61,014 bases of DNA from Candidatus Yanofskybacteria bacterium (GCA_016185545.1 JACPNJ010000006.1:1-61014), one strand, 5' to 3'; shown: positions 14,001 to 46,973, counted from the first letter of the stretch. A program made the numbers and translations. Notes: generated from the letters alone by a model not told the origin.

Positions 14001-14380
14001 AGGTCGCCTTAATTCAAGAAACGGATAAGATTGACAAAAGCGGCGGCGCAATCAATCTTATGACAATACATTCGGCCAAGGGCTTAGAGTTTCCGATTGT
14101 ATTTATCATTGGTATGGAAGATGGCATCTTCCCGCACTCGCGCGCCTTATTTGAGCCTGCGGAACTTGAGGAGGAAAGGAGACTTTGTTATGTCGGTATC
14201 ACTCGCGCCAAAGAACAGCTTCATCTGACCTATTGCCGAGAACGTATGTTTTATGGTTCTACTCAACTCAACCCGCCATCCAGATTTTTATTTGAAATCC
14301 CGGAACATTTGTTAAATTACTCGCCGCTTAGCCAAAATAAATATACGGAGGATTGGGACGATAAAATTGAGTACTATTAA
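11036..14380 (+). CDS. pcrA: ATP-dependent DNA helicase PcrA/UvrD, interrupted by an intein in the Walker A motif
   Basis: The exteins read AGAGSGK|T RALTHRIAYM, TFTNKAA, IDEYQDTN, DDYQSIYSFR, NYRS, IHSAKGLEF and YVGITRA. Confidence 0.9.
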   Translation: MNFMENIENSKIFADLNDKQIEAVRAIEGPVLILAGAGSGKCVSGDTLIFTGAGIIPIEEIPLHFGVSSQNDCSAPILSHHLNGSFSIKNTSHWFRFPKTKVIKISTKSGYQITGTYEHPLLVLNREGELEFKKLRDLKNGEVVAISKNNNIWGNYNLHPEIAYLMGLLVGDGYLGFKSGIGFAQVSENLIKAFKNILKKFFQIQVAKIKSRERYPAGNKRRSTTHYVYNMALKRELEGLGLKMVGSHHKSIPQSVLTAPKDSAKAFLQGLFDTDGSVSGATVELTTASETLAKQVHVCLLNFGIRASLRPKFVKSYRNNTYWRIAIMGTSLRTFAAEVGFRYQDHKIEKLQAIANKVSNSNVEVIPFQNLNIKHFKDRYLLGTEIYDGKYYYIFPETHNKIYIRDYLRRRRNPSPWQLERILKTAGNGARDPRVEYMFNLTRNFFFDPVVEVAREKEKIIVYDFTVPKNHTFVGNGFINHNTRALTHRIAYMIANNIPPQNILAVTFTNKAAGEIKERVVKLLSETQPKTYDLKPITSPSPWLGTFHSICLRILRHDIKTLPPYTENFVVYDEDDQLGLIKNVMRELELDIKKFNPKNVLGRISALKSELIGYEEFTEKAREYFEKIVAPVYTGYQITLQQNNALDFDDLIMLCVRLFQKHPEILEKYQNLFRYILIDEYQDTNHSQYVWVNLLAQKHRNLFVIGDDYQSIYSFRLANIRNILDFEKDYPEAKIILLEQNYRSTGNILAAANNIIIKNKNQKHKKLWTENSAGDEIILKEAANERREGDYVIETVRNNLKQGRGLQDFTILYRTHAQSRAIEEAMIKHGLPYRILGGVKFYQRREIKDILAYLRLAVNPNDLISWSRIYNVPGRGIGQTTWQKIKEARKLNIAETIKNITLESSIGQKQTIALKLLAKFIEELSQKSAELSPSQLIKYILQKTNYELYINDKTTDGEERWENVKEILTATRKYDSETAPNGLQKFLEEVALIQETDKIDKSGGAINLMTIHSAKGLEFPIVFIIGMEDGIFPHSRALFEPAELEEERRLCYVGITRAKEQLHLTYCRERMFYGSTQLNPPSRFLFEIPEHLLNYSPLSQNKYTEDWDDKIEYY
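11159..12481 (+). mobile_element. Intein (441 aa) with LAGLIDADG homing-endonuclease domain, inserted between K and T of GSGKT
   Basis: It starts CVSGDTLIF, has block B TGTYEHPLL, endonuclease motifs LMGLLVGDGYL and FLQGLFDTDGSV, and ends VGNGFINHN followed by +1 Thr. Confidence 0.85.
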
Positions 14381-15211
14381 ATGAGCTTAGCCACTCAAAT
14401 AAAAAATGAGTTAAATCAGCTTGGTATCAAACCCAAAAAATCGCTTGGGCAGAATTTTCTTATAAATGAGGGGATCTACAAAAAAATATTGGATATTGCG
14501 CAGATTAGACCGAGCGAAACAATTTTGGAAATAGGGGCTGGCCTGGGCACACTCACTGAATATTTAGCTCGCGCCGGAGGGAAAATTTTAGCCGTTGAAA
14601 AAGATAGGAATCTTGTGGCTTATCTTAAAGATCGTTTTCGGGATTATAATAATATTAGCACTGTAGAAGCTGATATTCTTAAAATCAAGCCTTCGGAATT
14701 AGGGCTGGAAGAAAAAAATTACAAGCTAGTCGGAAATATACCGTATTATCTGACATCGCATTTGATAAGAACGGTTTTTGAAAATTGGCCGTGGCCAAAA
14801 GATATTATCTTGATGGTACAAAAAGAGGTCGCGCAACGGATTGTTACTGAACCGCCGAATATGAATTTACTCGCGGTATCGATTCAATATTATGCCCGAA
14901 CGGAGATTGCTGGCATGGTTTCAAAGGGAAATTTTTGGCCTCAACCTAAAGTTGATTCTGCTATAATAAAGATAACTCCAAAAACCGAAATACCAGAGGC
15001 CGTAGAAACAGAAAGGTTTTTTAGAGTATTGAAGGCAGGATTTTCCGGCACAAGAAAACAACTTATAAATACTTTGTCGGGCGGATTAAAATTATCTAGG
15101 AAAACAGTAAGCTCAAAGCTCCTTTCGCTAGGTATCGCCACACAAAGACGCGCTGGAACATTGACTTTAGACGAATGGCAAAATATCGCTACTACGCTCT
15201 TGCCGCGTTAA
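14381..15211 (+). CDS. rsmA: 16S rRNA (adenine1518/1519-N6)-dimethyltransferase
   Basis: LGQNFL, EIGAGLGTLT, and GNIPYY. Confidence 0.9.
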   Translation: MSLATQIKNELNQLGIKPKKSLGQNFLINEGIYKKILDIAQIRPSETILEIGAGLGTLTEYLARAGGKILAVEKDRNLVAYLKDRFRDYNNISTVEADILKIKPSELGLEEKNYKLVGNIPYYLTSHLIRTVFENWPWPKDIILMVQKEVAQRIVTEPPNMNLLAVSIQYYARTEIAGMVSKGNFWPQPKVDSAIIKITPKTEIPEAVETERFFRVLKAGFSGTRKQLINTLSGGLKLSRKTVSSKLLSLGIATQRRAGTLTLDEWQNIATTLLPR

Positions 15212-16899
15212 GCGGCTTGCTCTTGTCCCTTGCCTATTCGGGTTGGAGTTTTGATTTGGGCTGGCTGGTCTGGATTGGATTTGTTCCACTTTTTTGGTCG
15301 TTGGCCCAAATCGTTTCCGAATACGAACATACTCGGAAACGATTTGGATTTTTGATAGGGTTCATCGCAGGACTTGTTTATTTTTTGATAATTTTCCGCT
15401 GGTTTTGGTCTATCTATCCGCTGGATACACTTGGCATTGAAAACCGTTCTATCTCCTTCGTCGCTGTTCTGCTTGTTTATCTGATTAGCTCTGCCGGAAT
15501 GGCAGTGTTTTGGGGACTTTTTGGAGCAGGTTTCAGGTTTCAGGTTTCAGGTTTCAGGTTTCAAAATGGATCAAGCACCTGGCACCTGGCACCTGGCACC
15601 TGGCACCCTTTGTTAATACTTTCCGCCCTATTCGTCCTGTTTGAATATCTCCGCTCCTGGGGTTTCGGGTTTTTGTGGGCCGGTTCCAATTCGCTTTTTG
15701 GCCCGCATTGGACATTGGGCAATCTGGCTTATGCTTTGGCCGATAATCCATTGGCGCTCAAACTCGCTTCGTTTGTTGGCGTCTATGGGGTTACTTTTGC
15801 GATTATTTTTATAAATTGCCTAATTTTTATAATTTTAAAAAAAAGGACTTATCTTGTAACCACAAGAATAGTCCTTGTGGTTTTGATACTTTTATTGGCT
15901 ACCTTTGGAACCAGGTTAATTAAATTTACGGCCACGCAGCAAGAAAAAAGTAAACAAGTTAACTTCGCCATTATACAAACCGCCCGGCCAACCAAAGTTT
16001 TGCCAAGTCCTCAAGAAACCTTGGCCGATCTCAAAGAACAGCTTGAATTACTTGACCGTGTCGCCAAAGAACATCCCGAAAGCCAGCTTATCGTTTTCCC
16101 CGAAACAAGCGACCTATTTAAAAATATCGCCCTGTTTTTAACCCCAGTGCAAGCCCAGGAATATTTTAGCAATCTTTTTGAAGATCCGAAATTAATAATT
16201 GCCGGCGGTAGAGTTATTGATTCCAATAGCAGTGCCTACTCACGTGTTTTCGATCTTAATACACAAAACGGCATTATCAACTATTATGATAAGCGTCTTC
16301 TAACTCCAGGCGGTGAATTTTTGCCTTACCCGGTAAAATTAATCGCTTGGATATTTTCAAAAACCACGGCCAATCAATTTGACAGCTTGCGCGAATTAAA
16401 TGTTGGCGTTAAAGATGTCTCAACTGTAAACTTCCGCGACCAATTTAAGGTAGCACCGATGATTTGTTCTGAATTGCTATCACCGAGTTTAGTCAAACAA
16501 ACTTCCCAAAGTTCAGATGTAATCGTCAGTATGGCAAGTTATGGAATTTTTCACGGAAATCCTGTTATAGCAAAGCAGATGCTTGCCACTACACGCTTCA
16601 GAGCAATAGAGAACACCAAACCAGCCGTTACCGCCGCTAATTTGGGACGCTCTTATGCAATAGACAGTCGAGGAAAAGTTGCTTATTTAGCCGCAAACTC
16701 CGATCCGCAGATATTAACAGGTTCTATTGTGCTAGGTTCCGGTAAATCGTGGTATAATAGAGTAGGCGATTTGCCAATAATTTTGGTATCTTTGCTATTG
16801 ATGGTCCTAGGGTTCAGGTTACAGGTGTCAGGTTACAGGGGAAGAATAAAATCTTGGTTATGGAGGAACCAAGAAATTAAAAATGGTAAATTCCTATAA
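15175..16899 (+). CDS. lnt: Apolipoprotein N-acyltransferase with heptamer-array segments
   Basis: Polytopic N-terminal half, then a CN-hydrolase domain (AIIQT.., VFPETS, APMICSEL). Confidence 0.8.
   Translation: MAKYRYYALAALSGLLLSLAYSGWSFDLGWLVWIGFVPLFWSLAQIVSEYEHTRKRFGFLIGFIAGLVYFLIIFRWFWSIYPLDTLGIENRSISFVAVLLVYLISSAGMAVFWGLFGAGFRFQVSGFRFQNGSSTWHLAPGTWHPLLILSALFVLFEYLRSWGFGFLWAGSNSLFGPHWTLGNLAYALADNPLALKLASFVGVYGVTFAIIFINCLIFIILKKRTYLVTTRIVLVVLILLLATFGTRLIKFTATQQEKSKQVNFAIIQTARPTKVLPSPQETLADLKEQLELLDRVAKEHPESQLIVFPETSDLFKNIALFLTPVQAQEYFSNLFEDPKLIIAGGRVIDSNSSAYSRVFDLNTQNGIINYYDKRLLTPGGEFLPYPVKLIAWIFSKTTANQFDSLRELNVGVKDVSTVNFRDQFKVAPMICSELLSPSLVKQTSQSSDVIVSMASYGIFHGNPVIAKQMLATTRFRAIENTKPAVTAANLGRSYAIDSRGKVAYLAANSDPQILTGSIVLGSGKSWYNRVGDLPIILVSLLLMVLGFRLQVSGYRGRIKSWLWRNQEIKNGKFL
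15528..15607. repeat. Heptamer-periodic inverted array inside lnt
   Basis: (aggtttc)x4-5, loop aaaatggatcaag, then (cacctgg)x3-4. It is translated as FRFQVSGFRFQ..STWHLAPGTWHP. Confidence 0.9.
16809..16840. repeat. Heptamer array, left arm of the cassette enclosing four-helix-bundle gene 1
   Basis: Sequence agggttc aggttac aggtgtc aggttac aggg, located in the last codons of lnt. Confidence 0.85.
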
Positions 16900-17239
16900 G
16901 GATTTGACTGTTTGGCAAAGGTCTCTCGAGTTAGTCAAAGAAATTTATAAAACAACTAGATTTCTACCAAAAGATGAAATTTATGGTTTAACGAATCAGA
17001 TGAGAAGGGCAGCAATATCGATACCTTCTAACATAGCCGAGGGACATCAAAGAAAAAATCTAAAAGAATATCTGCAATTCTTGAGAATATCTTATGGCTC
17101 GGCTGCAGAGCTAGAAACACAGCTTATTATTTCCAAAGAAATATATCCACGCATAGATTTTTTGACAGCGGAGTCGCTTCTTAAGGAAGTTCATAAAATG
17201 TTAAATACTCTGATCCAGAAACTTGAATTAAAATTTTAA
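16883..17239 (+). CDS. Four-helix-bundle protein (23S rRNA intervening-sequence protein family)
   Basis: Family signature Y.DL.VWQ....L...IY......P..E.YGL..Q.RRAA.SI..NIAEG.....K.....F..I..GS..E..T. Confidence 0.85.
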   Translation: MVNSYKDLTVWQRSLELVKEIYKTTRFLPKDEIYGLTNQMRRAAISIPSNIAEGHQRKNLKEYLQFLRISYGSAAELETQLIISKEIYPRIDFLTAESLLKEVHKMLNTLIQKLELKF

Positions 17240-17270
17240 CCTGAAACCTGATCCCTGAAACCTGTAACCT
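17239..17270. repeat. Heptamer array, right arm (inverse units) of cassette 1
   Basis: Sequence acctgaa acctgat ccctgaa acctgta acct, starting in the stop codon of the four-helix-bundle gene. Confidence 0.85.
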
Positions 17271-17302: not shown

Positions 17303-18289
17303 ATGAACATGAAATTAAAAATAATCCTGGGAGCATTGCTACTTATCGCCGGCTTTCTTGTTGTCCGGCTGGGTTTGTTTTTTAAACATAGCGTCCAAAC
17401 GGCGACAACGGCAAACATTGGGAATCAAATCGCCGGGGTGAATGAAACAAACTGGTCTGCCGTGGATACCGACAGTGACGGCATCCCGGATGCAAACGAA
17501 GCCTACTACCGGACCGACCCCTTTAATTCCGATACGGACAGCGACGGCTATCTGGATGGCGAAGAAATAATTTCCGGTTTTAATCCCACAAGAAAAGAAA
17601 ACCCAACCGAACGCAATAAACAAACCGGAAATTTAACCAATTCCTTGGTCCAACACATAGCAACTGGCATTTATACCGGTGATTTAAGCCCAAAAATTGG
17701 TGAAAGCCAATACGAAAAAAACCTAAATCTTCTGACGCTGGGCACAATTAATGAAGCGATAGATTTGTTAAACCCACCGCTTATTTCTGATGCCAGTTTG
17801 GTTATAGTTGGCAAATCAAAACAATCACAAGAAGAATATCTGACCAATACCGCCTCATTACTGGAAGGCCCGTTTTTGAATTCGTTCATGCAGCAGGGGC
17901 AAGTTTTAAGCCAAGCGGCTAATTTTATGGTCGGATTTAAATACACCGAGGCCACTGAAATTTTCAAAAACTATTATTTAACCTTCACGAATGCCCACAA
18001 CCAGCTACTGACCGTTTCGGTGCCGGAAAATTGGGTTAATTTTCATAGACACCTGCTAGCGATTTTCCAAAAAATGGCTCTGAATTACCGTTCACTCACC
18101 CAGATAGCCAATGACCCGCTTTTGGCTATAACGGCCTTGCAAAATATCCCAAACAATCTGCTAGAAATTGATTCATCTTTAATTCAAGAACTCAGAATTT
18201 TAATCCAAAAAGAAAATTTAGAAATACCCAATTCATCTCTTTTTGATGTTTTGGATCTGTTAAATACCAATAAAACCCGTGATAACTAA
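17303..18289 (+). CDS. Membrane-anchored secreted protein with thrombospondin-type-3-like Ca-binding repeats
   Basis: N-terminal transmembrane segment, plus DTDSDGIPDANE and DSDTDSDGYLDGEE motifs. Confidence 0.6.
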   Translation: MNMKLKIILGALLLIAGFLVVRLGLFFKHSVQTATTANIGNQIAGVNETNWSAVDTDSDGIPDANEAYYRTDPFNSDTDSDGYLDGEEIISGFNPTRKENPTERNKQTGNLTNSLVQHIATGIYTGDLSPKIGESQYEKNLNLLTLGTINEAIDLLNPPLISDASLVIVGKSKQSQEEYLTNTASLLEGPFLNSFMQQGQVLSQAANFMVGFKYTEATEIFKNYYLTFTNAHNQLLTVSVPENWVNFHRHLLAIFQKMALNYRSLTQIANDPLLAITALQNIPNNLLEIDSSLIQELRILIQKENLEIPNSSLFDVLDLLNTNKTRDN

Positions 18290-19388
18290 TAACTGGACAA
18301 AAGCAATCTTAAGTCTCGTCGTTATTGGCTTTTTGGTCTTGTATCCCGTTCATTCCGCCCGTTCGGTCGGGGCTATTATGTATGTCCTCAAAGAATTCGG
18401 CCTGGACCTCATAGCCAGAGTAATTGGCAGAACTTTTTTGACTAAGATGATCAATAGCACTACGGATTTTTTAAGCAAGAACGGCAGAGACGGCCTACCC
18501 AATTTCGTGCAGGATTGGCGGAGTTTTCTTCAGGAAGCACAATACAGAGGCGAAGACATAACAAGAGCGACAATCGGTGAGGCTATAAACAATAATGCGA
18601 TATGCGATTACCTTAAAAGCCCGCTTGCCAATGCTTTCGGCGCTTTCGCACAATCAGGTTTCAGCGCCACCAAACATAGGGTTGACTCACTTCAGTATTA
18701 CGCACTTCGTAACAGATGTACTCTGCCTGTAGGTTTCAATGTAAATACATTTAGAAACGACTTTTCCGTAGGCGGTGGTTGGGCAGCTTGGGATAAACTA
18801 ATCCAGCCACAGAATAATTTTTTCGGAGTTTACGCCGACTCCCTGGACGAACTGGAAAAACAAAGAAGTTTTGAAGAGAGAAGGGACCGCAGTGAAGCTG
18901 AAGCTGGTAGCGGTTTTACTTCAAAGACGGGCGGGAAAGAGGGCGGCTGTGAGATTAGATCGCCGGGAAATGTAGCCTGTTTGGTTCTCGGTCAAATACA
19001 AACACCATCCAAGATACTAGGAGAGATCGGGAGCGATTTAAACACTGGTGAATTTGACTGGCTGACTAGTTGCGATGAATTAAGCGAATGTTTGATCTCT
19101 GCCACCACTTTCGTACTTAACAGGTTGGGTAACTTTACGGGCGCAGGTTCACGTGTTAGCGAACCTCCGCCAGCGGATACATCTTTTGGTGATGCGGCAA
19201 AAGATGAAGTGTTTAATGATTGCGTCAAATCCAAAGAGGCGGGGTGCGTAGAGAAAGCCAAGAGGTTAGAGTGTACTACCTTCACCTCTCCGGATGGTAC
19301 GACAACAGAAGATTGTGTAGAGATAATAGATCAGGGAATTTTTAACGTTTGCATGGATGAAGCAAGAAGAATTTGCACGGTTCAATGA
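18279..19388 (+). CDS. Hypothetical secreted cysteine-rich protein
   Basis: N-terminal transmembrane segment or signal and many Cys in the C-terminal half. It overlaps both neighbours, suggesting an operon. Confidence 0.55.
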   Translation: MITNNWTKAILSLVVIGFLVLYPVHSARSVGAIMYVLKEFGLDLIARVIGRTFLTKMINSTTDFLSKNGRDGLPNFVQDWRSFLQEAQYRGEDITRATIGEAINNNAICDYLKSPLANAFGAFAQSGFSATKHRVDSLQYYALRNRCTLPVGFNVNTFRNDFSVGGGWAAWDKLIQPQNNFFGVYADSLDELEKQRSFEERRDRSEAEAGSGFTSKTGGKEGGCEIRSPGNVACLVLGQIQTPSKILGEIGSDLNTGEFDWLTSCDELSECLISATTFVLNRLGNFTGAGSRVSEPPPADTSFGDAAKDEVFNDCVKSKEAGCVEKAKRLECTTFTSPDGTTTEDCVEIIDQGIFNVCMDEARRICTVQ

Positions 19389-21661
19389 GCAAAAAAGGTA
19401 ATAAATTTGGTGTGCTATTAGCCGTAATTATTTTACTGGCCGTTTTTGTTCCGCAATATCAGGCAAGAGCTGATTTGTTTGATATAGGTAGTATTGCCAG
19501 TGGGGCAGTGGCGAAAGTGGTGGGTTATATAAATACCCTTTTACTTGGCTTTCTAGGAGAAGTTATATCATATTTTGCACAGCTTATTGAAGAGTTTATC
19601 ACGCTTCAAACCAACGGCGGCATTTATAATGTTGCCATAGTCGATGGGAGTTGGACCATTATTAGGAACTTCGTAAACTTATTTTTTATTTTAGCTCTAA
19701 TAGTAATGGCATTCGGCACAATATTTAATATTCAAAGATATACTTGGAAAAATATGCTGGCCCCTTTTTTAATAGCCGCTCTTCTCATAAATTTCAGTCT
19801 GACCATAGGGCAATACATCATTACGGTCGCCAACGGTTTGGCTACTGTTTTTTTAAGAGAAATGCAAGACCCGCAGGTGGGAGGTATAGCAGCAAATTTT
19901 CAGAATGGATTTAGTAGCGCAAAAATAATAACAAGCGGTACAACAAGTATTAGCGCTTTACAAGCAATGGGCGATGCCGCCGCGGGTATCGGCAGTGTTG
20001 TTCTTACCCTGATTTTTTCTGTTATATTTTTAGCGGCTATAGCATTGGCATTTATCGCAACGGCTATTTTTTCAATCGTGAGATTATTTATGCTTTGGTT
20101 TCTTTTAATCATTTCCCCGATTGCCTGGTTTGGTTATACGATGCCTAATTTGAGAAGTGGGACATGGAGCGCCTGGTGGAAGCAATTCTTATGCTGGTGT
20201 TTTTTCTTGCCATATTTTCTATTTTTTATGATGTTCGCGGTTAGTTTCATTAAAAACAAAGGTTTAATATCCCTACCCTCGACTCTCGGACGCATATCGG
20301 TGGCTGGTATGACTGGAAATGATTTTGTATTTTATTTATTGAGTTTAATATTCCTCTTCGGCGGAATGGCGATTGCACATAAACTTGCTTGCGCGAGCGG
20401 CACGGGGGTAAAAGCGGTATTCGGCAAGATTGAAACCGGGGTGCGCAAATACGCCCCCGGAGCGGCTTATGTCAGGGCCACATATACTGGCGCGAAAGAA
20501 GGATTGGCGGCTAAAGGCGCGGAAATAAAGGAAAGGGGGATGCCAATCGGTTTTGGCCGCCGGGTTGGCGGAGAACAGGCTGAACGTTTACGAACCGCCC
20601 GGGTAGCTGAAGCATTCGGTATGGGCGCGAAAGTCGGAGAAGCCGGGAGAGTGCAGATGGCCGAAATTGAAAAAGAGGCCAAGAGAGTTCGTGAACAGTT
20701 ACTAAGAACGCCAGCTGATCAGCAAAAATCCTTTTTGGAATCATCGCGTTCCCAAAAAGGAGTAATCGGTCAAGCAGCAGCCCTTGAGTACGTTAAGCAA
20801 GGATATTCAACACTAGCTGATTATCAGGAAGCTGTTAAAAAATTTGGCGACGAAAACAGCGCCTTCATGCGCCAATACTTGGAAAACCTCAAACAAGCCA
20901 AGCTTAGTGATCTGTTTAAGAGTCCGGACGCGGAATTGCGTATCGCCAGAGGCGAGGCAGAAGAAACTGTGGGTTTGGTCAATCTTCGCCGCGAACTTTA
21001 TAAAGACCTCGCTAAGAGAAATCGAATTAATAATACGGCCGATTATAATCAAGCAAAGGAGATTTTGTCGCCAATCCCAGCCGAGTTAAGGTCTTTCTTG
21101 GATTCAGTCAAAGCAGAAGCGATATTTACTACAAGAGAACAAAGACAGGATGCGCTTTTGGATTCCACTAATAAGATCGGGGATGCCGATTTGGAAAAGA
21201 AATTGGTTGAATTTATGAAAGAAAAGAAGGAAATAACCGACTTCAGGAAAAAGGACACCAAAGAGCTCGTAGCGGCTGGCTGGCAATTACGCGAAAAGGC
21301 GTTGGAAATTTTGGGCGGCAAGGAAACATTTGACGGCAAAGGCTTAATTAAAGAAATAAATAATTATAATCCGATTATTAACATTGAGGCCGAGATGAGA
21401 ACGGCGCCAGGAGCTAAGCCATTCCTGGACAATGAAGAACTAATAAGCAAGCTACAGGAAGAACTCAAGGGCAAGTCTTACGCCGACATAAGAAAGATGT
21501 CCGGTAAATTCTTTGAGGACCCGGCGGCCCAAGAGGCAATAAAGAGAATGTACGACCCGAAAGAAATAGCGGACTTAATTAAGAATTCATCGCAAGAAAT
21601 GAGAAGAGCGCTAAAAGATTTTGCCATATCGGAAGAAAAAACTAAAAGAAGTCGCACGTAA
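19373..21661 (+). CDS. Polytopic membrane protein, VirB6/TrbL-like, with long charged C-terminal domain
   Basis: Signal-like N-terminus and about 7-8 hydrophobic segments over the first 350 aa or so. It sits upstream of the PrgI-like and VirB4-like genes. The family call is inferred from topology and context, not motifs. Confidence 0.5.
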   Translation: MHGSMSKKGNKFGVLLAVIILLAVFVPQYQARADLFDIGSIASGAVAKVVGYINTLLLGFLGEVISYFAQLIEEFITLQTNGGIYNVAIVDGSWTIIRNFVNLFFILALIVMAFGTIFNIQRYTWKNMLAPFLIAALLINFSLTIGQYIITVANGLATVFLREMQDPQVGGIAANFQNGFSSAKIITSGTTSISALQAMGDAAAGIGSVVLTLIFSVIFLAAIALAFIATAIFSIVRLFMLWFLLIISPIAWFGYTMPNLRSGTWSAWWKQFLCWCFFLPYFLFFMMFAVSFIKNKGLISLPSTLGRISVAGMTGNDFVFYLLSLIFLFGGMAIAHKLACASGTGVKAVFGKIETGVRKYAPGAAYVRATYTGAKEGLAAKGAEIKERGMPIGFGRRVGGEQAERLRTARVAEAFGMGAKVGEAGRVQMAEIEKEAKRVREQLLRTPADQQKSFLESSRSQKGVIGQAAALEYVKQGYSTLADYQEAVKKFGDENSAFMRQYLENLKQAKLSDLFKSPDAELRIARGEAEETVGLVNLRRELYKDLAKRNRINNTADYNQAKEILSPIPAELRSFLDSVKAEAIFTTREQRQDALLDSTNKIGDADLEKKLVEFMKEKKEITDFRKKDTKELVAAGWQLREKALEILGGKETFDGKGLIKEINNYNPIINIEAEMRTAPGAKPFLDNEELISKLQEELKGKSYADIRKMSGKFFEDPAAQEAIKRMYDPKEIADLIKNSSQEMRRALKDFAISEEKTKRSRT

Positions 21662-21677
21662 TTAGCATAACTACCAC

Positions 21678-22256
21678 ATGCCGCTAACTCATCAAAAATA
21701 TCTTCAATATAGCCCATTTTTTGTAGACGCTACGGAGATGTCTGATTTGGATTGGGAAAGATTAAATACGAAAATAGACAAAATACCACAAACTTTAGCT
21801 GACTTTTTGGTTGATATTAAGGTTTCCGAGTTCATAGACGCCTTAGCCCAAAAATATATCCAACTCTCGGTGCAGGGACCGGATATGGCTAGGTTGATTA
21901 GGGATGTGGTGATCAGGGATATTTTTATCGGCGACATACCAAAGGAAATTTCAGATCGGCTGGGAGTTGACCAAACCCTCGCCCGCGAGATTGCAAATTT
22001 AATCATCTCCCAGCTTTTTACGCCGATTATTGAAGATATAAAGAAAGTACAGAACGAAAGGTATCCGGGTAGATTGCCCGCCCAATCACAGGTTTCAGGT
22101 GTCAGGGTTCAGGGTTCGGGGCAAAGCGGGCAAGATCCCAAACCAGTAGCGCCACCCTCCTACGCCAAGGCTTCGGAGGGCACAGCAAAGCATTATCAGG
22201 GCGAAGAGTTACCAGAATCAGGCGGTAATATTATTGACTTGCGAAGCAAGTCATAG
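21678..22256 (+). CDS. Hypothetical protein with heptamer-array and GC-hairpin segments near its C-terminus
   Basis: 192-aa ORF. Its C-terminal third is low complexity (QVSGVRVQGSG.., PPSYAKASEG) and is encoded by repeats. Confidence 0.5.
   Translation: MPLTHQKYLQYSPFFVDATEMSDLDWERLNTKIDKIPQTLADFLVDIKVSEFIDALAQKYIQLSVQGPDMARLIRDVVIRDIFIGDIPKEISDRLGVDQTLAREIANLIISQLFTPIIEDIKKVQNERYPGRLPAQSQVSGVRVQGSGQSGQDPKPVAPPSYAKASEGTAKHYQGEELPESGGNIIDLRSKS
22090..22121. repeat. Heptamer array (single arm) inside ORF 21678-22256
   Basis: Sequence aggtttc aggtgtc agggttc agggttc gggg. Confidence 0.8.
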
Positions 22257-22292
22257 GTTATAGGTTATAGCTGATAGCTGATAGGTGATAGC
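22255..22292. repeat. Heptamer array, left arm of the cassette enclosing four-helix-bundle gene 2 (AGGTTAT/AGCTGAT flavour)
   Basis: Sequence aggttat aggttat agctgat agctgat aggtgat agc. It begins within the TAG stop of the upstream ORF. Confidence 0.85.
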
Positions 22293-22339
22293 TTTAAAAA
22301 TGAGTTCTAGAAATAAGGAGGCTAGGACGCAAATAAAAA

Positions 22340-22705
22340 GTGGATAAAATTCATTCGTACAGAGATTTAGTGGTATGGCAAAGGTCCATTGAGCTAGTTA
22401 TAGAAATATACACGCTAACTGATAGGTTTCCGAAAGAAGAAATTTACGGACTAATTTCGCAATTAAGGAGAGCTGCCGTTTCAATCCCTTCTAATATCGC
22501 CGAAGGCAGGTATCGTGGGACAAGAAAAGATTTTAGGCAATTTCTTCTTAATGCTTACGGCTCTGGCGCTGAAGTTGAAACACAATTGGTTATTGCAAAT
22601 AAATTGCCGAAAACAAAAAATTTAAATTATGTCAGAGCAAATAAAATTCTAGATGAAGTAATGCTAATGTTAAATTCACTAATCAAAAAATTGGAAACTT
22701 CTTAA
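22340..22705 (+). CDS. Four-helix-bundle protein (23S rRNA intervening-sequence protein family), second copy (GTG start)
   Basis: YRDLVVWQRSIEL..IY..FPKEEIYGLISQLRRAAVSIPSNIAEG..FL..AYGSGAEVETQL. By eye it is roughly half identical to copy 1. Confidence 0.85.
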   Translation: MDKIHSYRDLVVWQRSIELVIEIYTLTDRFPKEEIYGLISQLRRAAVSIPSNIAEGRYRGTRKDFRQFLLNAYGSGAEVETQLVIANKLPKTKNLNYVRANKILDEVMLMLNSLIKKLETS

Positions 22706-22736
22706 CTATAACCTATGACCTATAAGCTATCACCTG
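22706..22736. repeat. Heptamer array, right arm of cassette 2
   Basis: Sequence ctataac ctatgac ctataag ctatcac ctg. It starts 1 nt after the stop and ends 4 nt before the next ATG. Confidence 0.85.
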
Positions 22737-22740
22737 CACC

Positions 22741-23046
22741 ATGAGATTCCAAGTCCCCCAATTCATAGAAACGGAAACCAAAATCGTCGGGCCATTCACG
22801 TTCAAGCAATTTTTGTTTCTGGCCGTTGGGGCGGTAATAATTTTTATCCTGCAATATGTAATCACCAGTTTTACTTTTTTAATAATTGTGGCTCTGCCGA
22901 TTGCTGCCTTATCCATTGCGCTTGCGTTTTACCGGATAGATGGCATACCCTTGCCGCAATACTTATTGATGGCATTATCATATGCGACGGGGGCGAAAAG
23001 ATACCAATTCACTAAAGAAAATAAGCAAAATTATTTGCAAAAATAG
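22741..23046 (+). CDS. PrgI-family (VirB3-like) small membrane protein
   Basis: N-terminus MRFQVPQFIETETKIVGPFTFKQFLFL followed by two transmembrane segments. It lies just upstream of VirB4-like genes. Confidence 0.7.
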   Translation: MRFQVPQFIETETKIVGPFTFKQFLFLAVGAVIIFILQYVITSFTFLIIVALPIAALSIALAFYRIDGIPLPQYLLMALSYATGAKRYQFTKENKQNYLQK

Positions 23047-23114
23047 GTTTCAGGTTACAGGTTTCAGGTTACAGAAAATTAAACCTGACACCTGACACCT
23101 GACACCTGACACCT
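23045..23114. repeat. Heptamer-periodic inverted array (stop-to-start)
   Basis: Sequence aggtttc aggttac aggtttc aggttac ag, loop aaaattaa, then (acctgac)x4 acct. It overlaps the TAG stop at 23044-23046 and ends at the TTG start at 23114. Confidence 0.9.
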
Positions 23115-23755
23115 TGCCCACACCGCCCAAAAACCAGTCCACCAAAGATTTCGTAGAAATCGCGGACATCCGCGAGAGTGTTGCGGTCTTAAAAGATGGG
23201 TCTTTGCGTTCTGTTATTGAAGTTGGTTCAATGAATTTTGAGCTTAAGTCAGCCGATGAACAAATGGCAATAATAAGCGCTTTCCAGAATTTCCTGAATT
23301 CCATTGATTTTCCGCTTCAAATCGCCGTTAATTCGCGTAAATTAGAAATCGGACCATATATGAAGTCGCTTAATGAACTGACCCAGAGCATTTCCAATGA
23401 ACTTATGAAAATCCAGGCCATTGAATACACGCGTTTCATCAAAGGACTAACGGAACTTGCCAATATAATGTCAAAAAAGTTTTATATTGTCGTTCCGCTG
23501 TATATTGTGGAAACGATCGGCAAGGGAGAACAGGGAACTGGAATTTTAGGCGCTTTCAGAAGCGTGGTTAGCCCTTCCAAATTCACTAAAACCCTCACTG
23601 ATCAAGAATTTGAAAATTATAAAACACAACTTAGTCAAAAAAACCAGTTTGTCATGGACAGCATCAGCGGATTAGGCATTGAAACGCGGATATTGGGAAA
23701 AGAGGAGCTAATGAATCTTTATTATTCTTATTACAATCCGGGACATCAATTATAA
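23114..23755 (+). CDS. VirB4/TraE-like protein, N-terminal domain fragment (TTG start)
   Basis: DFVEIADIRESVAVLKDGSLRSVIEVGSMNFELKSADEQMAIISAFQNFLNS resembles the N-terminal region of Gram-positive VirB4-type ATPases. It is in the same reading frame as 23894-25618. Confidence 0.6.
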   Translation: MPTPPKNQSTKDFVEIADIRESVAVLKDGSLRSVIEVGSMNFELKSADEQMAIISAFQNFLNSIDFPLQIAVNSRKLEIGPYMKSLNELTQSISNELMKIQAIEYTRFIKGLTELANIMSKKFYIVVPLYIVETIGKGEQGTGILGAFRSVVSPSKFTKTLTDQEFENYKTQLSQKNQFVMDSISGLGIETRILGKEELMNLYYSYYNPGHQL

Positions 23756-23760
23756 AAAGA

Positions 23761-23830
23761 AGGTGTCAGGTGCCAGGTTTCAGGTTACAGAAAATCACAC
23801 CTGACACCTGACACCTGACACCTGACACCT
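23761..23830. repeat. Heptamer-periodic inverted array between the two VirB4 parts
   Basis: Sequence aggtgtc aggtgcc aggtttc aggttac ag, loop aaaatcac, then (acctgac)x4 acct. Confidence 0.9.
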
Positions 23831-23893
23831 AAAATTTCATTATTCGCTAAAAAACCACAACCAATCGCTTCGCCCACAGAACCGCCTGTAAAA

Positions 23894-25618
23894 ATGTTGG
23901 ACGATATCTTGGCTCCTTCGGCGATTGATATTTCTTCCAACTATCTGCAAATAGGCGATACTTACGCCCGCACTTTTTTCTTAGCAACTTATCCGAGATA
24001 TCTAAATACCAACTGGTTTTCTCCGATTGTTAATATGGATCGGCCTTTTGACGTGTCTATTTTTGCGCATCCGGAAAATACTGCCCAAATGCTCAAGCAG
24101 CTACGCGATCGGCTTGGCCGGCTTCAGGCTCAGGAAATGGAGGAACAAGCGGCCGGTAAAGTAAGAGATCCGGTGTTGGAAACGGCTATCGGCGACATTG
24201 AGGCGCTTAGGGATAAACTACAGCAAGGAACAGAAAGATTTTTTAGATTGGGAGTTTATATAACGATATACGGCGGTTCGCTAAAAGAACTTGATGATAC
24301 GGAAAATAAAATCAAGTCAATTCTTGACGGTCAGCTGGTTTATTCAAAACTAGCAACTTTCAGAATGAAAGAAGGATTTTTCTCAACCCTGCCGCTTGCC
24401 GACGACCAGCTTCAGGTCCATAATTCATTGAATACCGAACCGATTTCCTCGCTTTTTCCTTTCGTGTCTTATGACCTGACCACAGAGAAGGGAATACTTT
24501 ACGGAATAAATACTCACAATAATTCTCTGGTTTTATTTGACAGGTTTAGTATGGAAAATGCGAATATGGTGATTTTCGGAAAGAGCGGCGGCGGTAAATC
24601 ATATGCCGTTAAATTGGAAATTCTCAGAAGTTTGATGTTTGGCACGCAGGTTTTTGTGATTGACCCTGAAAACGAATATAAATTCCTATCTGACACTGTA
24701 GGCGGCACTTCCATTAAAATATCCATCACCTCACCGCACCATATCAATCCGTTTGATCTGCCCAAGCCGTTACCCGATGAAAGTCCGGCTGACGTTTTAC
24801 GTTCTCATATTATTAATCTAATGGGTCTTTTTAAGCTCATGCTGGGAACGCTTACGGCGGAAGAAGAGGCGATTTTGGACGAAACCATAAATCAAACCTA
24901 TGCCATTAAGGACATAACGCCCCAAACGGCCGATTTGAAAAACGCCGTGCCACCGTTGATGTCGGATTTTCAAAATGTTTTAGAGGGCATGGCCGGCACG
25001 GAATCTTTGGTCATCAGGATTAAAAAGTATACTGAAGGTACATTTGCCGGTTTTTTGAATAATCCGACCAACGTTGAGTTAAATAATCAGCTGATAGTTT
25101 TCGGCATTCGCGACATGGAAGAAGAACTGCGCCCGATTGCCATGTATTTGGTGCTCAATTTTATTTGGACGCAAGTCAGAACAGAGTTGAAAAAACGTAT
25201 TTTAGCCGTGGATGAGGCGTGGGTATTGATGAAATACGAATCCGGAGCGGCATTTTTGTTCAATATAGCCAAGCGTGCACGCAAATACTATTTGGGTTTA
25301 ACAACAATTTCCCAAGATATTCCGGATTTCATGGCTTCGCCGTACGGCAAACCGATTGTTACCAATTCATCCCTGCAGTTGCTATTAAAACAATCGCCGG
25401 CATCAATCGACTTGGTTAAACAAACATTCAACCTGACAGATGCGGAAAAATTTTATCTTCTGGAATCGCGTGTGGGTCACGGTTTGTTTTTCGCCGGCAT
25501 CAATCATGTGGCCTTGCGGGTGATAGCATCATACGCTGAAGATCAGATTATTACCTCTGACCCAAGACAGATATTGGAAATAGAGGAAGCTAAAAAAGAA
25601 CTAGCAAAGCAAAGTTAG
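23894..25618 (+). CDS. VirB4-like type IV secretion ATPase, C-terminal (NTPase) part
   Basis: Walker A FGKSGGGKSY and Walker B ILAVDEAW, followed by TTISQD. The upstream region (NTNWFSPI.., FDVSIF) is typical of VirB4 middle domains. Confidence 0.8.
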   Translation: MLDDILAPSAIDISSNYLQIGDTYARTFFLATYPRYLNTNWFSPIVNMDRPFDVSIFAHPENTAQMLKQLRDRLGRLQAQEMEEQAAGKVRDPVLETAIGDIEALRDKLQQGTERFFRLGVYITIYGGSLKELDDTENKIKSILDGQLVYSKLATFRMKEGFFSTLPLADDQLQVHNSLNTEPISSLFPFVSYDLTTEKGILYGINTHNNSLVLFDRFSMENANMVIFGKSGGGKSYAVKLEILRSLMFGTQVFVIDPENEYKFLSDTVGGTSIKISITSPHHINPFDLPKPLPDESPADVLRSHIINLMGLFKLMLGTLTAEEEAILDETINQTYAIKDITPQTADLKNAVPPLMSDFQNVLEGMAGTESLVIRIKKYTEGTFAGFLNNPTNVELNNQLIVFGIRDMEEELRPIAMYLVLNFIWTQVRTELKKRILAVDEAWVLMKYESGAAFLFNIAKRARKYYLGLTTISQDIPDFMASPYGKPIVTNSSLQLLLKQSPASIDLVKQTFNLTDAEKFYLLESRVGHGLFFAGINHVALRVIASYAEDQIITSDPRQILEIEEAKKELAKQS

Positions 25619-25695
25619 GTTTCGGGTGTCAGGTTTCAGGGACCAGGTTAAAGAAAAATTTTCCCTGTAACCTGTAACCTGTAACCTGTAACCTG
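25617..25695. repeat. Heptamer-periodic inverted array (stop-to-start)
   Basis: Sequence aggtttc gggtgtc aggtttc agggacc aggttaa, loop agaaaaattttc, then (cctgtaa)x4 cctg. It overlaps the TAG at 25616-25618 and abuts the ATG at 25696. Confidence 0.9.
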
Positions 25696-26361
25696 ATGCC
25701 GGATGATCAATACTACTACGACCTTGCTTATGCCCGAGGACAGCAACAAGAACAGAGAGAAATCCAAGATACTGCCAATCGTGTTATAAAACCGCCATCG
25801 GGTACGTTATATTTTTTTCTTTACTGTCTTGCTGGAATTGGCGATATATTGGATTGGCTCACTCTCACCGGAATTGGAGCTATTGTTTCCTTTATAGTTG
25901 ACCTTTTTATCGGCATAATACTATTTTTCGCCGGACGCGCGGCAAGAGACAGGATAAAAACCATGAATGAATTCCAGGATGGCCTTCATGGACATATACA
26001 AAATATCGAAAGGAAAATTGTTGCTTACAGAAATGCTTATGCTAAAATTTTAAGAGTGTCCCGAAAAGTTAAGATCCTAAGAAAACCAGTCAGGAAACTT
26101 GCATTAAGATTCGCAAGATTGCGAAAAAGTGTTGCCAGAAGTCCCTTGGGAAGAACGATTGCCGCAATTATCGCTGATTTAATCCCTTTTTTAGATCTTA
26201 TGCCTTGGCGAACTATTAATATCTATATGATGAAAAAACAAGAAATGCAGGCTTTCCAAGACGCTCAAAATATGTTACCTGAATATATGGAGGCCAAAGC
26301 AGATGAAATAGAAGCGGCAAACGATTTGCAAGAAGCAGAGATGACAGAACAAGCCGCATAA
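25696..26361 (+). CDS. Hypothetical membrane protein (two transmembrane segments, basic or amphipathic tail)
   Basis: 221-aa ORF in the cluster. No recognisable family. Confidence 0.55.
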   Translation: MPDDQYYYDLAYARGQQQEQREIQDTANRVIKPPSGTLYFFLYCLAGIGDILDWLTLTGIGAIVSFIVDLFIGIILFFAGRAARDRIKTMNEFQDGLHGHIQNIERKIVAYRNAYAKILRVSRKVKILRKPVRKLALRFARLRKSVARSPLGRTIAAIIADLIPFLDLMPWRTINIYMMKKQEMQAFQDAQNMLPEYMEAKADEIEAANDLQEAEMTEQAA

Positions 26362-26370
26362 CTATAAACT

Positions 26371-27444
26371 ATGCCACATAAATTTCTAAAATTCTTCGTA
26401 TTTACTCTGGTTTGTTCAGCTGTTTTTTTGGCCGGGTATTTATTTACCCAAAATCGCAATCCTTTGGACCAGCAAGCCCTTATTAATAATTCGCTGGTTT
26501 CGCGTTTTAATGAACCGGAAGAAAAATACACGGAACCAACCGGATTATTCGAGCTTACATCCGGCGAGGCAAATTTTCCGATTCTTTCCGGCAATGGCAC
26601 GGAGGTCTGGTATTATGTTCCCCGAAGCGGCGAAATACGTTCGGCCACAGTTAAGAACCCTCTGGCTGGGTCCACTCTCGTAGCCAAAATACAACCAAAT
26701 GCTTCTAATATCAGCTGGGGAGCAAATAAGATGTTACTAGCTAATTATTCAACGGGCGCGGTTTATTATGACCTCGGCTCAAACTTTTCAAAAAAATATG
26801 AGACTAAAATAAAAAATCCCGTTCTAGACAAAACGGGTGTAAAAATTGCTTATACTCATTTTAACGAAATGACAGGAAGTGGCAATGTAAGCATTGCCGA
26901 TTCTAAATTTGAGGTATCTAAAAATATAATTCCGACCCGTTTTGCCGGTTGGCAGATTAGTTGGTTAAATGAAAAAATGCTCGCGCTTATCAAACCGCCG
27001 ACTTTGGAAAATACGCATATTTCTCTTTTTATTCTGGATACCGAGAAAAAGGAATTGCAGAATATTCTTGATTTTAAAAATAATCTTAAGGTCGTTTGGT
27101 CACCGGATGGACAAAAAATAGTTTACTCGTACATTGACCCCTACTCTGGACAAAACGGGCTTTACTTTATGGACTTGGTCGTCAAAAAAGAAACCTCTTT
27201 AAATTTATTGCATAACGCTTCCGGATGTACATGGAGTATTGATAATAAAACAGTTTACTGCGCCGGCAAAGATTCTTTTGTCTCTTTTGACGCAACGGCC
27301 ACGACTATTGAAACTCAAGTAGTCGCTAATTCCCAAAATGCCGATGCCGCTTATGCCGCCAATATGTTTCTCACCGGTACCGAAGATTACCTAATCTTCA
27401 AAAACACCAAAAATGGCAAATTATACGGGTTACGTCTCAATTAG
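26371..27444 (+). CDS. Secreted beta-propeller-like protein (TolB/PD40-like repeats)
   Basis: Signal or anchor, then repeats such as WSPDGQKIVYSY and VKIAYTHF. Confidence 0.55.
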   Translation: MPHKFLKFFVFTLVCSAVFLAGYLFTQNRNPLDQQALINNSLVSRFNEPEEKYTEPTGLFELTSGEANFPILSGNGTEVWYYVPRSGEIRSATVKNPLAGSTLVAKIQPNASNISWGANKMLLANYSTGAVYYDLGSNFSKKYETKIKNPVLDKTGVKIAYTHFNEMTGSGNVSIADSKFEVSKNIIPTRFAGWQISWLNEKMLALIKPPTLENTHISLFILDTEKKELQNILDFKNNLKVVWSPDGQKIVYSYIDPYSGQNGLYFMDLVVKKETSLNLLHNASGCTWSIDNKTVYCAGKDSFVSFDATATTIETQVVANSQNADAAYAANMFLTGTEDYLIFKNTKNGKLYGLRLN

Positions 27445-27510
27445 CATTAAGAGGAATTTTTACTTATCCATAAATAGTATCTTGCTTTTGTCATACAGTT
27501 GTAATTCACT

Positions 27511-27744
27511 ATGGCTGTGAGAACAATTGTCAATTTATCAATGCCGCCCAAAATGGCCCAAATATTAAAAAGACGCGCTCTGCGCCGGGGTTTTGCCACG
27601 ACCAGTGAATACGTTAGATTCCTAATCAACTTGGATACTGAATTAATAACTGCCAAGGAACTACTGGAATTATCGGCCAGAGCAGACAAAGAGTATGCCA
27701 CCGGCAAACTTAAGACTGGCCCATTGTCACGATTTGTTAGTTGA
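27511..27744 (+). CDS. Ribbon-helix-helix (CopG-like) putative antitoxin
   Basis: N-terminal VNLSMPPKMAQILKRRALRRGFATTSEYVRFLI fits an RHH strand-helix-helix pattern. Confidence 0.5.
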   Translation: MAVRTIVNLSMPPKMAQILKRRALRRGFATTSEYVRFLINLDTELITAKELLELSARADKEYATGKLKTGPLSRFVS

Positions 27745-27768
27745 AATGGTTGATAGCATTTCCAAAGC

Positions 27769-27930
27769 ATGATTATAAAAGAAATTCTTTACAGTTCTGA
27801 TTTTATTAATCGATTTTGTAAATTACCCGGATTTGTTCAGAAATTAGCCTTGCTTCAACCACAGCGATGGATACCAACTATTGCCCCCCTCAAGTGCTAT
27901 AGTTTAGGCATGGGCATAAACCATGATTAA
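27769..27930 (+). pseudogene. Possible truncated toxin remnant (53 codons) downstream of the RHH gene
   Basis: Hand translation gives MIIKEILYSSDFINRFCKLPGFVQKLALLQ... The N-terminus resembles RelE/ParE-type toxins, but the ORF is too short and runs into the next gene. Confidence 0.25.
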
Positions 27931-35261: not shown

Positions 35262-35463
35262 CTGATTTTCCTTGCATCAGGCGGAGGCCATAGAGGTTTG
35301 CGGGGATTCTGAAATTGTGTGATTGCATGGCCGGCGAGCAGTATAATGTCTTGTGCGGTAGCACACTGCGAGCCGAATCCACAATTTCAAAATAGTGGAG
35401 CGAGTCGCTGGACGAGCGGAACGTCCCCGCAGACCTCTATGGCGGAGCCGCAAGGAAAATCAG
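35262..35463. repeat. 202-bp palindromic element (MITE-like, or a structured RNA) downstream of jag
   Basis: The outer arms ctgattttccttgc / gcaaggaaaatcag pair, then ccatagaggtttgcgggga / tccccgcagacctctatgg, then gaaattgtgtgatt / gaatccacaatttc. The right end is repeated at 48042-48086. Confidence 0.6.
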
Positions 35464-35981: not shown

Positions 35982-35986
35982 AATTT

Positions 35987-36691: not shown

Positions 36692-36693
36692 AC

Positions 36694-36766
36694 TAGGTTA
36701 TAGGTTATAGGTTATAGGTTATAGGTTTAAAATTTCTAACACCTATAACCTATCAGCTATCACCTG
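36694..36766. repeat. Heptamer-periodic inverted array (yidD stop to yidC start)
   Basis: (taggtta)x4-5, loop taaaatttctaa, then cacctat aacctat cagctat cacctg. The plus-strand right arm contains the yidD TGA, and the other end lies 2 nt from the yidC start. Confidence 0.9.
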
Positions 36767-37322: not shown

Positions 37323-37328
37323 GCATTC

Positions 37329-37388
37329 AGGTTATAGGTTACAGGTTATAGGTTACAGGTTTTTTCTGACACCTGACGCCTGACACCT
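37329..37388. repeat. Heptamer-periodic inverted array (rpmH stop to rnpA start)
   Basis: Sequence aggttat aggttac aggttat aggttac aggt, loop tttttct, then gacacct gacgcct gacacct. Confidence 0.9.
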
Positions 37389-46952: not shown

Positions 46953-46973
46953 TCTATTCTTATACCATATCCA

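Follow-up and report, generated by a model that had tools for sequence, protein, structure and literature searches.

A Parcubacteria-group type IV secretion system-like gene cluster with a two-piece VirB4 motor in a Candidatus Yanofskybacteria contig

Gene content of the cluster

In this study, we examined a gene cluster related to type IV secretion systems (T4SSs) at positions 17303-27444 of a 61,014-nucleotide (nt) stretch of DNA from a Candidatus Yanofskybacteria bacterium (GCA_016185545.1, JACPNJ010000006.1:1-61014). The whole stretch, hereafter the window, is the entire 61-kb contig, and all statements of absence cover this contig only. The region contains ten plus-strand open reading frames (ORFs) of at least 100 amino acids (aa), and neighbouring ORFs overlap or lie 10-140 nt apart. 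ORF identities were obtained from Pfam and NCBIfam scans of the cluster proteins, and the scans were extended to all further ORFs in the window. Relatives were collected by scanning one genome per species with an alignment of the VirB6-like family, which yielded 80 loci. Being the search query, this family is present in 80 of the 80 loci by construction; the presence of the other genes was determined by tblastn with the window proteins. All 80 loci came from Patescibacteria genomes, the closest being a metagenome-assembled genome of Ca. Yanofskybacteria. The components of the cluster, in their order, are as follows:

17303-18289, plus strand: anchored extracytoplasmic protein, 328 aa, with two Ca-binding TSP3 repeats (Pfam TSP3_bac 4.7e-6); orthologue in 50 of 80 loci
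18279-19388, plus strand: Cys-rich secreted or anchored protein, 369 aa (signal/anchor); orthologue in 62 of 80 loci
19373-21661, plus strand: extended VirB6-like polytopic membrane protein, 762 aa (hydropathy scan, structure model)
21678-22256, plus strand: soluble protein p192, 192 aa, with a conserved C-terminal NxIDLR motif; orthologue in 37 of 80 loci
22253-22733, plus strand: inserted element, a 23S-rRNA intervening sequence (IVS) four-helix-bundle gene (22340-22705) in inverted heptamer-repeat arms (Pfam 23S_rRNA_IVP 1.3e-34)
22741-23046, plus strand: small membrane protein of the PrgI/VirB3 family, 101 aa (Pfam PrgI 2.9e-12, above cut-off); found in 71 loci
23114-23755, plus strand: TrsD-like protein, 213 aa, the VirB4 N-terminal domain as a gene of its own (NCBIfam TrsD 5e-5); found in 67 loci
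23894-25618, plus strand: VirB4 ATPase body, 574 aa (NCBIfam conju_CD1110 9.8e-105; Pfam P-loop_TraG 8.8e-26); found in 66 loci
25696-26361, plus strand: short membrane protein, 221 aa (alignment); detected downstream of VirB4 in 22 loci
26371-27444, plus strand: N-terminally anchored TolB-like beta-propeller, 357 aa (profile against PDB TolB 8.3e-15); downstream of VirB4 in 43 of 80 loci

The cluster is therefore made up of nine co-oriented T4SS-associated genes and one unrelated inserted gene. An earlier interpretation made from the DNA alone (the sequence-only reading) had listed nine co-oriented, packed genes. The nine system genes were recovered here, with the correction that the ORF at 22340-22705 is an insertion and not a component. 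Its descriptions of an anchored protein with TSP3-like Ca-binding repeats, a PrgI/VirB3-like protein and a PD40-like propeller were all borne out by the matches given above and, for the propeller, by a Pfam PD40 match.

The PrgI-TrsD-VirB4 core

The 574-aa ATPase body matched the conju_CD1110 model, which is of MPF-FATA type and was its best family, over positions 189-732 of 752 and with 351 bits, above the curated cut-off of 325. The Walker A (GKSGGGKS) and Walker B (VDEAW) motifs are intact in the translation. The TrsD-like protein covers positions 100-233 of the VirB4_plasma model (2e-9) and positions 14-118 of CD1110; its family profile aligned with TrsD of pGO1 over 174 columns (hhalign, E 2.3e-5) and found no match among PDB sequences at E<=1. 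The TrsD-like and 574-aa proteins jointly span a full-length VirB4, and therefore the term split VirB4, as used in the sequence-only reading, is correct. PrgI lies directly upstream of TrsD in 71 of the 80 loci.

TrsD and VirB4 are separate ORFs in 64 of 66 loci, and in relatives their junction mostly measures -4 to +10 nt, often with a frame change. Since most relatives show such short junctions and frame changes, the split is ancient, and the two genes are probably translationally coupled. A frameshift, an intron or a sequencing artefact behind the split was excluded by the separate ORFs, short junctions and different frames of the relatives. The 138-nt gap between the two genes in the window is an insertion of a hairpin element, one of a family described below. 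In one relative (L015, 5145-7289), TrsD and VirB4 form a single ORF of 715 aa, compared with 787 aa for the two parts summed; this may be either a secondary re-fusion with deletion or an assembly artefact.

Sequence conservation indicates that the split VirB4 is under strong purifying selection, because the identity of VirB4 is 56-96% in 65 of 66 loci (33% in the outlier L077), the mean column identity of the TrsD alignment is 48% and the Walker motifs are intact. A LAGLIDADG homing-endonuclease intein was identified at the P-loop region of VirB4 in L010 (10395-14120) and L018 (13496-17239), where the orthologues are 1,242-1,248 aa long. Inteins typically occupy conserved sites of indispensable proteins. 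The UvrD protein of the window itself (11036-14380) also contains a LAGLIDADG intein.

Conservation of gene order and chromosomal location

A synteny check across Patescibacteria, as proposed along with the sequence-only reading, revealed the order uvrD-ksgA-(lnt)-TSP3-Cys-VirB6L-p192-PrgI-TrsD-VirB4-TM-propeller in at least 66 of the 80 genomes, whose labels include Yanofsky-, Wolfe-, Azam-, Portnoy- and Doudnabacteria. Gene order shared by 66-71 of 80 loci far exceeds chance. The cluster is situated near several housekeeping genes, and the same flanks were observed in relatives:

14381-15211: ksgA, upstream of the cluster
35460-37551: rnpA, rpmH, yidD, yidC and jag, downstream of the cluster
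37796-39163: dnaA, about 10 kb past the cluster
39528-40643: dnaN, downstream of dnaA

A downstream MurJ-like gene, jag, yidC, dnaA and dnaN were found in 16-44 loci, and jag-yidC-dnaA-dnaN in 35-44. Because the same order and the same housekeeping flanks recur in dozens of genomes, the comparison indicates a vertically inherited machine at a fixed chromosomal site by the replication-origin gene block, and not a mobile element.

Downstream of the propeller gene, most relatives have the MurJ-like gene, jag and yidC. In the window, the stretch between the cluster and dnaA is filled with non-conserved genes.

The VirB6-like protein

The 762-aa protein has a signal/anchor and five further hydrophobic segments (six in total), followed by a 425-aa basic (Lys/Arg-rich) C-terminal domain of helical repeats. 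Such a combination of signal/anchor, membrane segments and long C-terminal domain is the layout named extended VirB6 in a 2025 FEMS review (PMC12857230). The protein itself matched no Pfam or NCBIfam family. An AlphaFold model based on 42 homologues had a mean pLDDT (predicted local distance difference test) of 81, and the best membrane-protein matches of this model in Foldseek were three chains of R388 TrwI/VirB6 (prob 0.96-1.0), with modest scores (template modelling (TM) score 0.43-0.44 over the target, E 0.09-0.5). We also compared the family by hhalign with 33 reference T4SS proteins of pCF10, pGO1 and R388, the 1768-column alignment being run as trimmed halves. The best reference for the membrane half was TrsL of pGO1 (TrbL family; E 0.0097, probability only 4%). 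One of the 42 relatives of the protein matched Pfam TrbL at 1.6e-4, and about 12 of 59 listed relatives carry a precomputed tag of PF19590, which we take to be a TrbL-like family. It is likely that the 762-aa protein is a channel of VirB6/TrbL type, on evidence that is weak but concordant. Of the corresponding claim in the sequence-only reading, the polytopic architecture stood with six hydrophobic segments, and the VirB6 identity now depends on these weak, concordant matches to TrwI, TrsL and TrbL.

Accessory genes

The remaining five genes of the cluster are accessory genes that are conserved and lineage-specific. When their profiles were compared with PDB sequences and the 33 T4SS references, only the propeller (TolB) and the TSP3 Ca-repeats found partners. 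The TSP3 protein has an N-terminal anchor and a helical C-terminal domain without an assigned fold, and its profile aligned in the PDB only with a biofilm surface protein, within the Ca-repeats of the latter. The propeller was additionally matched by the NCBIfam TolB model (3.7e-5).

The Cys-rich protein, which the sequence-only reading had rightly described as secreted or anchored, has a signal/anchor, and its alignment contains invariant W, G and N residues and four conserved Cys. It matched no Pfam or NCBIfam family. Its AlphaFold model (pLDDT 80 overall, about 95 over residues 80-210) had no structural match in the PDB (best E 0.7, TM score below 0.3). The TSP3 and Cys-rich genes are separate and overlapping in the window and form a single ORF of 603-627 aa in L010 (4506-6386) and L040 (8146-9957); this fusion suggests joint action of the two proteins.

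The p192 protein is lineage-specific, and its orthologues are always located between the VirB6-like gene and PrgI; no match was found for it among Pfam and NCBIfam families, PDB sequences or reference T4SS proteins. The short membrane protein is fast-evolving. Judging by the alignment, it probably has two adjacent hydrophobic helices near residues 38-80, and behind them a coiled-coil region that is basic and a hydrophobic stretch that is conserved; only a single segment was called by a crude hydropathy scan. Thus, the two-transmembrane-segment protein of the sequence-only reading is indeed a short membrane protein, with one or two segments. Its profile gave generic coiled-coil matches only, none of them among the reference T4SS parts.

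We considered roles of VirB8, VirB1, VirB2, VirB5 or Prg/Trs components for the accessory proteins, and nothing significant was found by profile searches against the PDB or by hhalign against the 33 references. In particular, the accessory profiles did not match PrgL, PrgD, PrgK, TrsG, TrsH or TrwG by hhalign. No hydrolase or VirB8 domain was detected in any cluster ORF by Pfam and NCBIfam, and structure comparison for such domains covered the Cys-rich protein only.

Absence of conjugation components

Among the scanned ORFs of the contig, we found no relaxase, VirD4/TcpA-type ATPase, VirB11, TrbC/VirB2-type pilin or integrase, which agrees with the sequence-only reading as regards relaxase, VirB11 and recognizable pilin. 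No contig ORF matched a relaxase family; an oriT, which is unrecognizable without its relaxase family, was not searched for. Neither a nuclease nor a nucleic-acid-binding domain was detected in the cluster by Pfam and NCBIfam, and no ends of an integrated element were apparent around it. The sole T2SSE-family ATPase of the window (49358-51025, minus strand) was considered as a candidate VirB11 and ruled out, as it is of PilB/GspE type (1e-150 versus 7e-13 for VirB11).

The sequence-only reading had also stated that the cluster is without a coupling protein. This statement can cover the 61-kb contig only; genes for VirD4-like type IV coupling proteins (T4CPs) are present in most Patescibacteria genomes, mostly far from virB4 (PMC12102498). 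Its view that the locus is not a classical conjugation module is upheld by the lack of relaxase, T4CP and integrase, together with the uvrD-ksgA and jag-yidC-dnaA flanks that are conserved across the whole class.

Relationship to known systems

Wang et al. (2023) reported that a T4SS without recognizable coupling protein and relaxase is essential for epibiotic growth of the Saccharibacterium Southlakia epibionticum (PMC10633639), and this essentiality is independent of ComEC (PMC12857230). In a survey of 3,035 Patescibacteria genomes, Quinonero-Coronel et al. (2025) found that Patescibacteria VirB4 proteins form a monophyletic clade nested in MPF-FATA, that TrsD is associated with VirB4 in 1,664 cases with PrgI-type VirB3 and VirB6 homologues near virB4, that virB4 lies near dnaA, dnaN, ksgA, rnpA and rpmH, and that relaxases occur in just 103 of the genomes (PMC12102498). 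Membership of the window VirB4 in this clade would fit, indirectly, with the Patescibacterial origin of all 80 related loci and with its best family being of MPF-FATA type. Consequently, the statement in the sequence-only reading that the apparatus lacked a functional definition has been overtaken, given its essentiality in a Saccharibacterium (PMC10633639) and the published phylum-wide architecture (PMC12102498).

The window cluster shares with the T4SS of S. epibionticum ML1 (SEML1_0006-0019) and the Patescibacteria clade a chromosomal location in the vicinity of ksgA, dnaA, dnaN, rnpA and rpmH, a VirB4 preceded by TrsD and PrgI/VirB3, a probable VirB6 homologue nearby, the absence of relaxase or T4CP beside virB4, and MPF-FATA ancestry. 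It differs from them in lacking a VirB2-like pilin array as well as peptidase or lysozyme genes downstream of virB4. Instead, it has five other conserved genes (TSP3, Cys-rich, p192, short membrane protein and TolB-like propeller).

Among plasmid systems, the trs/tra loci of pGO1, pSK41 and pIP501 from Gram-positive cocci (MPF-FATA) have the same triplet TrsC(VirB3)-TrsD-TrsE(VirB4) with a separate TrsD, and a VirB6 of the TrbL family. However, pGO1 is a plasmid, whereas the window locus is fixed in the chromosome, and pGO1 in addition encodes a relaxase, the VirD4-like TrsK, the CHAP hydrolase TrsG, TrsH, topoisomerase III, a single-stranded DNA-binding protein and the CagC-type pilin-like TrsB, all of them without a counterpart in the cluster. 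The Prg/Pcf system of pCF10 (Enterococcus faecalis) has the same order of VirB6 (PrgH), VirB3 (PrgI) and VirB4 (PrgJ), and its VirB4 also belongs to NCBIfam CD1110, but PrgJ is a single unsplit protein of 796 aa and PrgH has 266 aa compared with 762 aa in the window. PrgK (hydrolase), PrgL and PrgD (VirB8-like), PcfC (T4CP), the relaxase and the LPXTG adhesins of pCF10 have no detectable counterpart in the cluster. R388 Trw, the VirB/D4-type reference with a solved structure, shares the VirB3-VirB4 adjacency and provided, in TrwI/VirB6, the best membrane-protein structural match for the membrane domain of the 762-aa protein. In contrast to Trw, the window contains a monoderm locus, for which VirB7, VirB9, VirB10, VirB11, VirB2, VirB5 and VirB8 were not detected by hhalign against the references. 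The archaeal Ced system likewise has a VirB4-family ATPase without relaxase or T4CP and, were transport inward, would be plausible as an analogue in function, although the similarity to CedB is far below its cut-off (see below) and no CedA-type partner was found.

The window cluster is thus an already described system (2023, 2025), present in nearly all of the ultrasmall Patescibacteria, and only some details of it are new, because VirB4 with TrsD, PrgI/VirB6 homologues and the same position have been reported (PMC12102498) and the gene order mirrors TrsC-TrsD-TrsE of pGO1. The main texts that we consulted on the Patescibacterial T4SS make no mention of PD40, TolB, TSP3 or a propeller. Our modest additions are the conserved accessory set, the fusion of the TSP3 and Cys-rich genes, the VirB4 inteins and the repeat elements, which we did not find discussed in those texts. 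The window therefore offers a clean example of the Parcubacteria-group form and no new kind of system.

Proposed function and alternative explanations

Taken together, we consider it quite probable that the cluster is the Parcubacteria-group form of the Patescibacterial T4SS, derived from MPF-FATA and no longer used for conjugation. A two-piece VirB4 motor (TrsD and ATPase body) is encoded beside a PrgI/VirB3 anchor, with a VirB6-like protein in the same cluster. In the mechanism that we propose, PrgI and the VirB6-like channel would be the platform on which TrsD and VirB4 come together at the cytoplasmic side of the membrane; the basic C-terminal domain of the VirB6-like protein would be cytoplasmic. 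The TSP3, Cys-rich and TolB-like propeller proteins would build the wall-spanning, host-contacting part and would take the place that VirB8, VirB1, VirB5 and adhesins have in plasmid systems. VirB4 would hydrolyse ATP to move a macromolecule between epibiont and host, or to assemble a contact filament, and the substrate would be other than relaxase-bound DNA. By analogy with the literature, a role in host interaction appears to be the best reading, because the homologous locus of S. epibionticum is essential on the host, is without a recognizable coupling protein or relaxase, and acts independently of ComEC. For the direction of transport, we give an even chance to an outward one, in which effector proteins are exported to the host or filament subunits are assembled towards it.

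Several points weigh against this interpretation. A coupling protein may be present elsewhere in the genome, beyond the 61-kb contig. The sequence homology of the VirB6-like protein is weak (hhalign E 0.0097, probability 4%) and its structural match modest (TM score 0.44), and no VirB8-like, VirB1-like or VirB2-like part was recognized in the cluster by Pfam, NCBIfam, profile or hhalign searches. The roles suggested for the five accessory proteins are drawn solely from location, topology and co-conservation. For this lineage, the proposed function, substrate and direction are read from the genes.

One alternative is that the VirB4/VirB6 core draws host DNA or RNA into the cell as a source of nucleotides, like archaeal Ced or the ComB system of Helicobacter. 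Patescibacteria are without nucleotide synthesis (PMC10633639), the locus is accompanied by comF, recG and radA in class ABY1 (PMC12102498), and a 2026 preprint describes a cultivated member that feeds on host RNA and has tubular structures, possibly T4SS pili (10.64898/2026.06.21.733656); the absence of relaxase and T4CP would also fit. The window VirB4 is indeed weakly similar to the DNA importer CedB (2.2e-11), but with 43 bits this match is far under the cut-off of 700 and under the CD1110 match of 351 bits. Moreover, no CedA-like or ComB-specific parts were detected in the cluster by Pfam and NCBIfam, the lack of nuclease and nucleic-acid-binding domains there argues against such a role, and deletion of comEC in S. 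epibionticum ends competence with viability kept, whereas the T4SS is essential (PMC12857230). We regard import of host nucleic acid as a serious competing explanation, if on balance a doubtful one. A variant of this idea, in which the five accessory genes form an unrecognized envelope/host-contact module with an architecture unlike that of characterized T4SSs and import host RNA or DNA rather than secrete, seems to us rather unlikely.

Another explanation limits the system to the assembly of a filament or adhesion organelle, VirB4 extracting and polymerizing subunits with no passage of a substrate. VirB4 is a pilus-biogenesis ATPase in diderm systems (PMC12102498), the Saccharibacterial locus contains essential arrays of VirB2-like pilins (PMC10633639, PMC12857230), and the possible T4SS pili of the cultivated member were seen by cryo-electron microscopy (10.64898/2026.06.21.733656). 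On the other hand, no VirB2-like pilin is recognizable in the window or the cluster, and adhesion is already provided by type IV pili in the phylum (PMC12857230), a PilB-type ATPase being present in the window as well; this explanation is unlikely. Finally, the cluster could be what is left of an integrated conjugative element in decay, its relaxase, coupling protein and integrase having been lost. Its VirB4 is of the conjugative MPF-FATA type, the cluster has no DNA-processing genes, and selfish elements occur within it. However, the same order at the same site between housekeeping genes across several candidate phyla (at least 66 genomes), the intact ORFs, high conservation and retained ATPase motifs, the TrsD/VirB4 junction, which in most relatives is of the kind usual for translationally coupled genes, and the lack of an integrase-like gene or apparent element ends make such a remnant extremely improbable.

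No T4SS before the Patescibacterial one had been shown to be essential to the life of its carrier bacterium, and the lineage was at one time put at about a quarter of bacterial diversity. The five accessory genes, the two-gene fusion and the selected split VirB4 are concrete targets for structural and genetic work, provided that a co-culture of the class Paceibacteria becomes tractable.

Inserted IVS gene and heptamer hairpin elements

The IVS gene at 22340-22705, located at the p192/PrgI position, is absent from that position in all relatives and is a selfish insertion, not a T4SS component. Its arms (22253-22270 and 22706-22723) are 94% complementary. Elsewhere in relatives, an IVS gene was found between PrgI and TrsD (L011, L038, L066 and L071) or upstream of the TSP3 gene (L018). 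Both IVS genes of the window (PF05635/TIGR02436; 16883-17239 and 22340-22705) lie in the loop of inverted heptamer arms with 83-94% complementarity, and three of the five copies in relatives (L011, L018 and L038) are bracketed likewise:

16816-17270 and 22253-22733: IVS gene brackets in the window
8140-8527: IVS gene bracket in L011
7381-7768: IVS gene bracket in L018
6655-7082: IVS gene bracket in L038

A family of short hairpins with related heptamers was also identified in the window. Each consists of three to five copies of AGGTTWC or AGGTGTC, an A-rich loop and three to five copies of ACCTGWM. An 18-mer from these elements had 13 matches in the window versus 0 expected, and the RNA folds of the family range from -21 to -43 kcal/mol (z -3 to -8). 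Empty hairpins are present in all three gaps of the core from PrgI through TrsD and VirB4 to the membrane protein:

23045-23113, plus strand: hairpin in the PrgI/TrsD gap (-32.7 kcal/mol, z -6.2)
23761-23830, plus strand: hairpin in the TrsD/VirB4 gap (-43.1 kcal/mol, z -8.4; inverted repeat 87-94% complementary)
25617-25695, plus strand: hairpin in the VirB4/membrane-protein gap (-39.9 kcal/mol, z -6.7)
6012-6095, 15526-15605, 22089-22116, 36693-36760, 37328-37388, 44888-44960 and 57640-57667: further hairpin elements

Copies are found in intergenic gaps and also in frame within rnhB, lnt, p192 and an aminotransferase gene; the copy in lnt adds about 10 residues relative to orthologues. At the TrsD/VirB4 gap, L001 and L003 have different heptamer hairpins, and most relatives have none. 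At least one tandem heptamer run was detected in 46 of the 80 loci, in a scan that took any heptamer sequence, and the heptamers of L001 and L003 differ from those of the window. The IVS gene may be carried as cargo by a mobile stem-loop element, and the short hairpins may be miniature derivatives of that element. Such an element would parallel the RNase III-excised intervening sequences of 23S rRNA that named the family, and the behaviour of the hairpins recalls, by analogy, the Rickettsia palindromic elements. We found no description of such a heptamer hairpin family from the candidate phyla radiation (CPR) in the literature searched.

Other features of the window

A scan for promoters and terminators was uninformative, with counts close to chance, and an Rfam search gave no match within the cluster or in the 27445-27922 gap. 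Directly after the cluster, two small plus-strand ORFs (77 and 53 aa; 27511-27930) matched no protein or RNA family. By eye, the 77-aa ORF resembles a ribbon-helix-helix antitoxin and the 53-aa ORF a truncated toxin. These ORFs are not conserved there in relatives, and neither are the next two genes, one for a PsbP-like membrane protein of 670 aa and one for a protein of 942 aa.

An IS200-like Y1 transposase of 221 aa is encoded at 46287-46952 on the minus strand, its best NCBIfam match being the REP-associated tyrosine transposase (1.1e-6). The same near-perfect 38-nt palindrome (cttagaggctcaacctc...gaggttgagcctctaagt) lies on both sides of it (46254-47012), and a third, diverged copy follows nusA (53942-53977). 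The transposase and palindromes form a REPtron-like arrangement in a CPR genome. At the start of the window (98-2313), we identified a partial 16S rRNA gene whose model positions 875-1387 are spread across about 1.3 kb, with LAGLIDADG endonuclease ORFs at 395-988 and 1747-2313; this interruption is an rRNA insertion typical of CPR.

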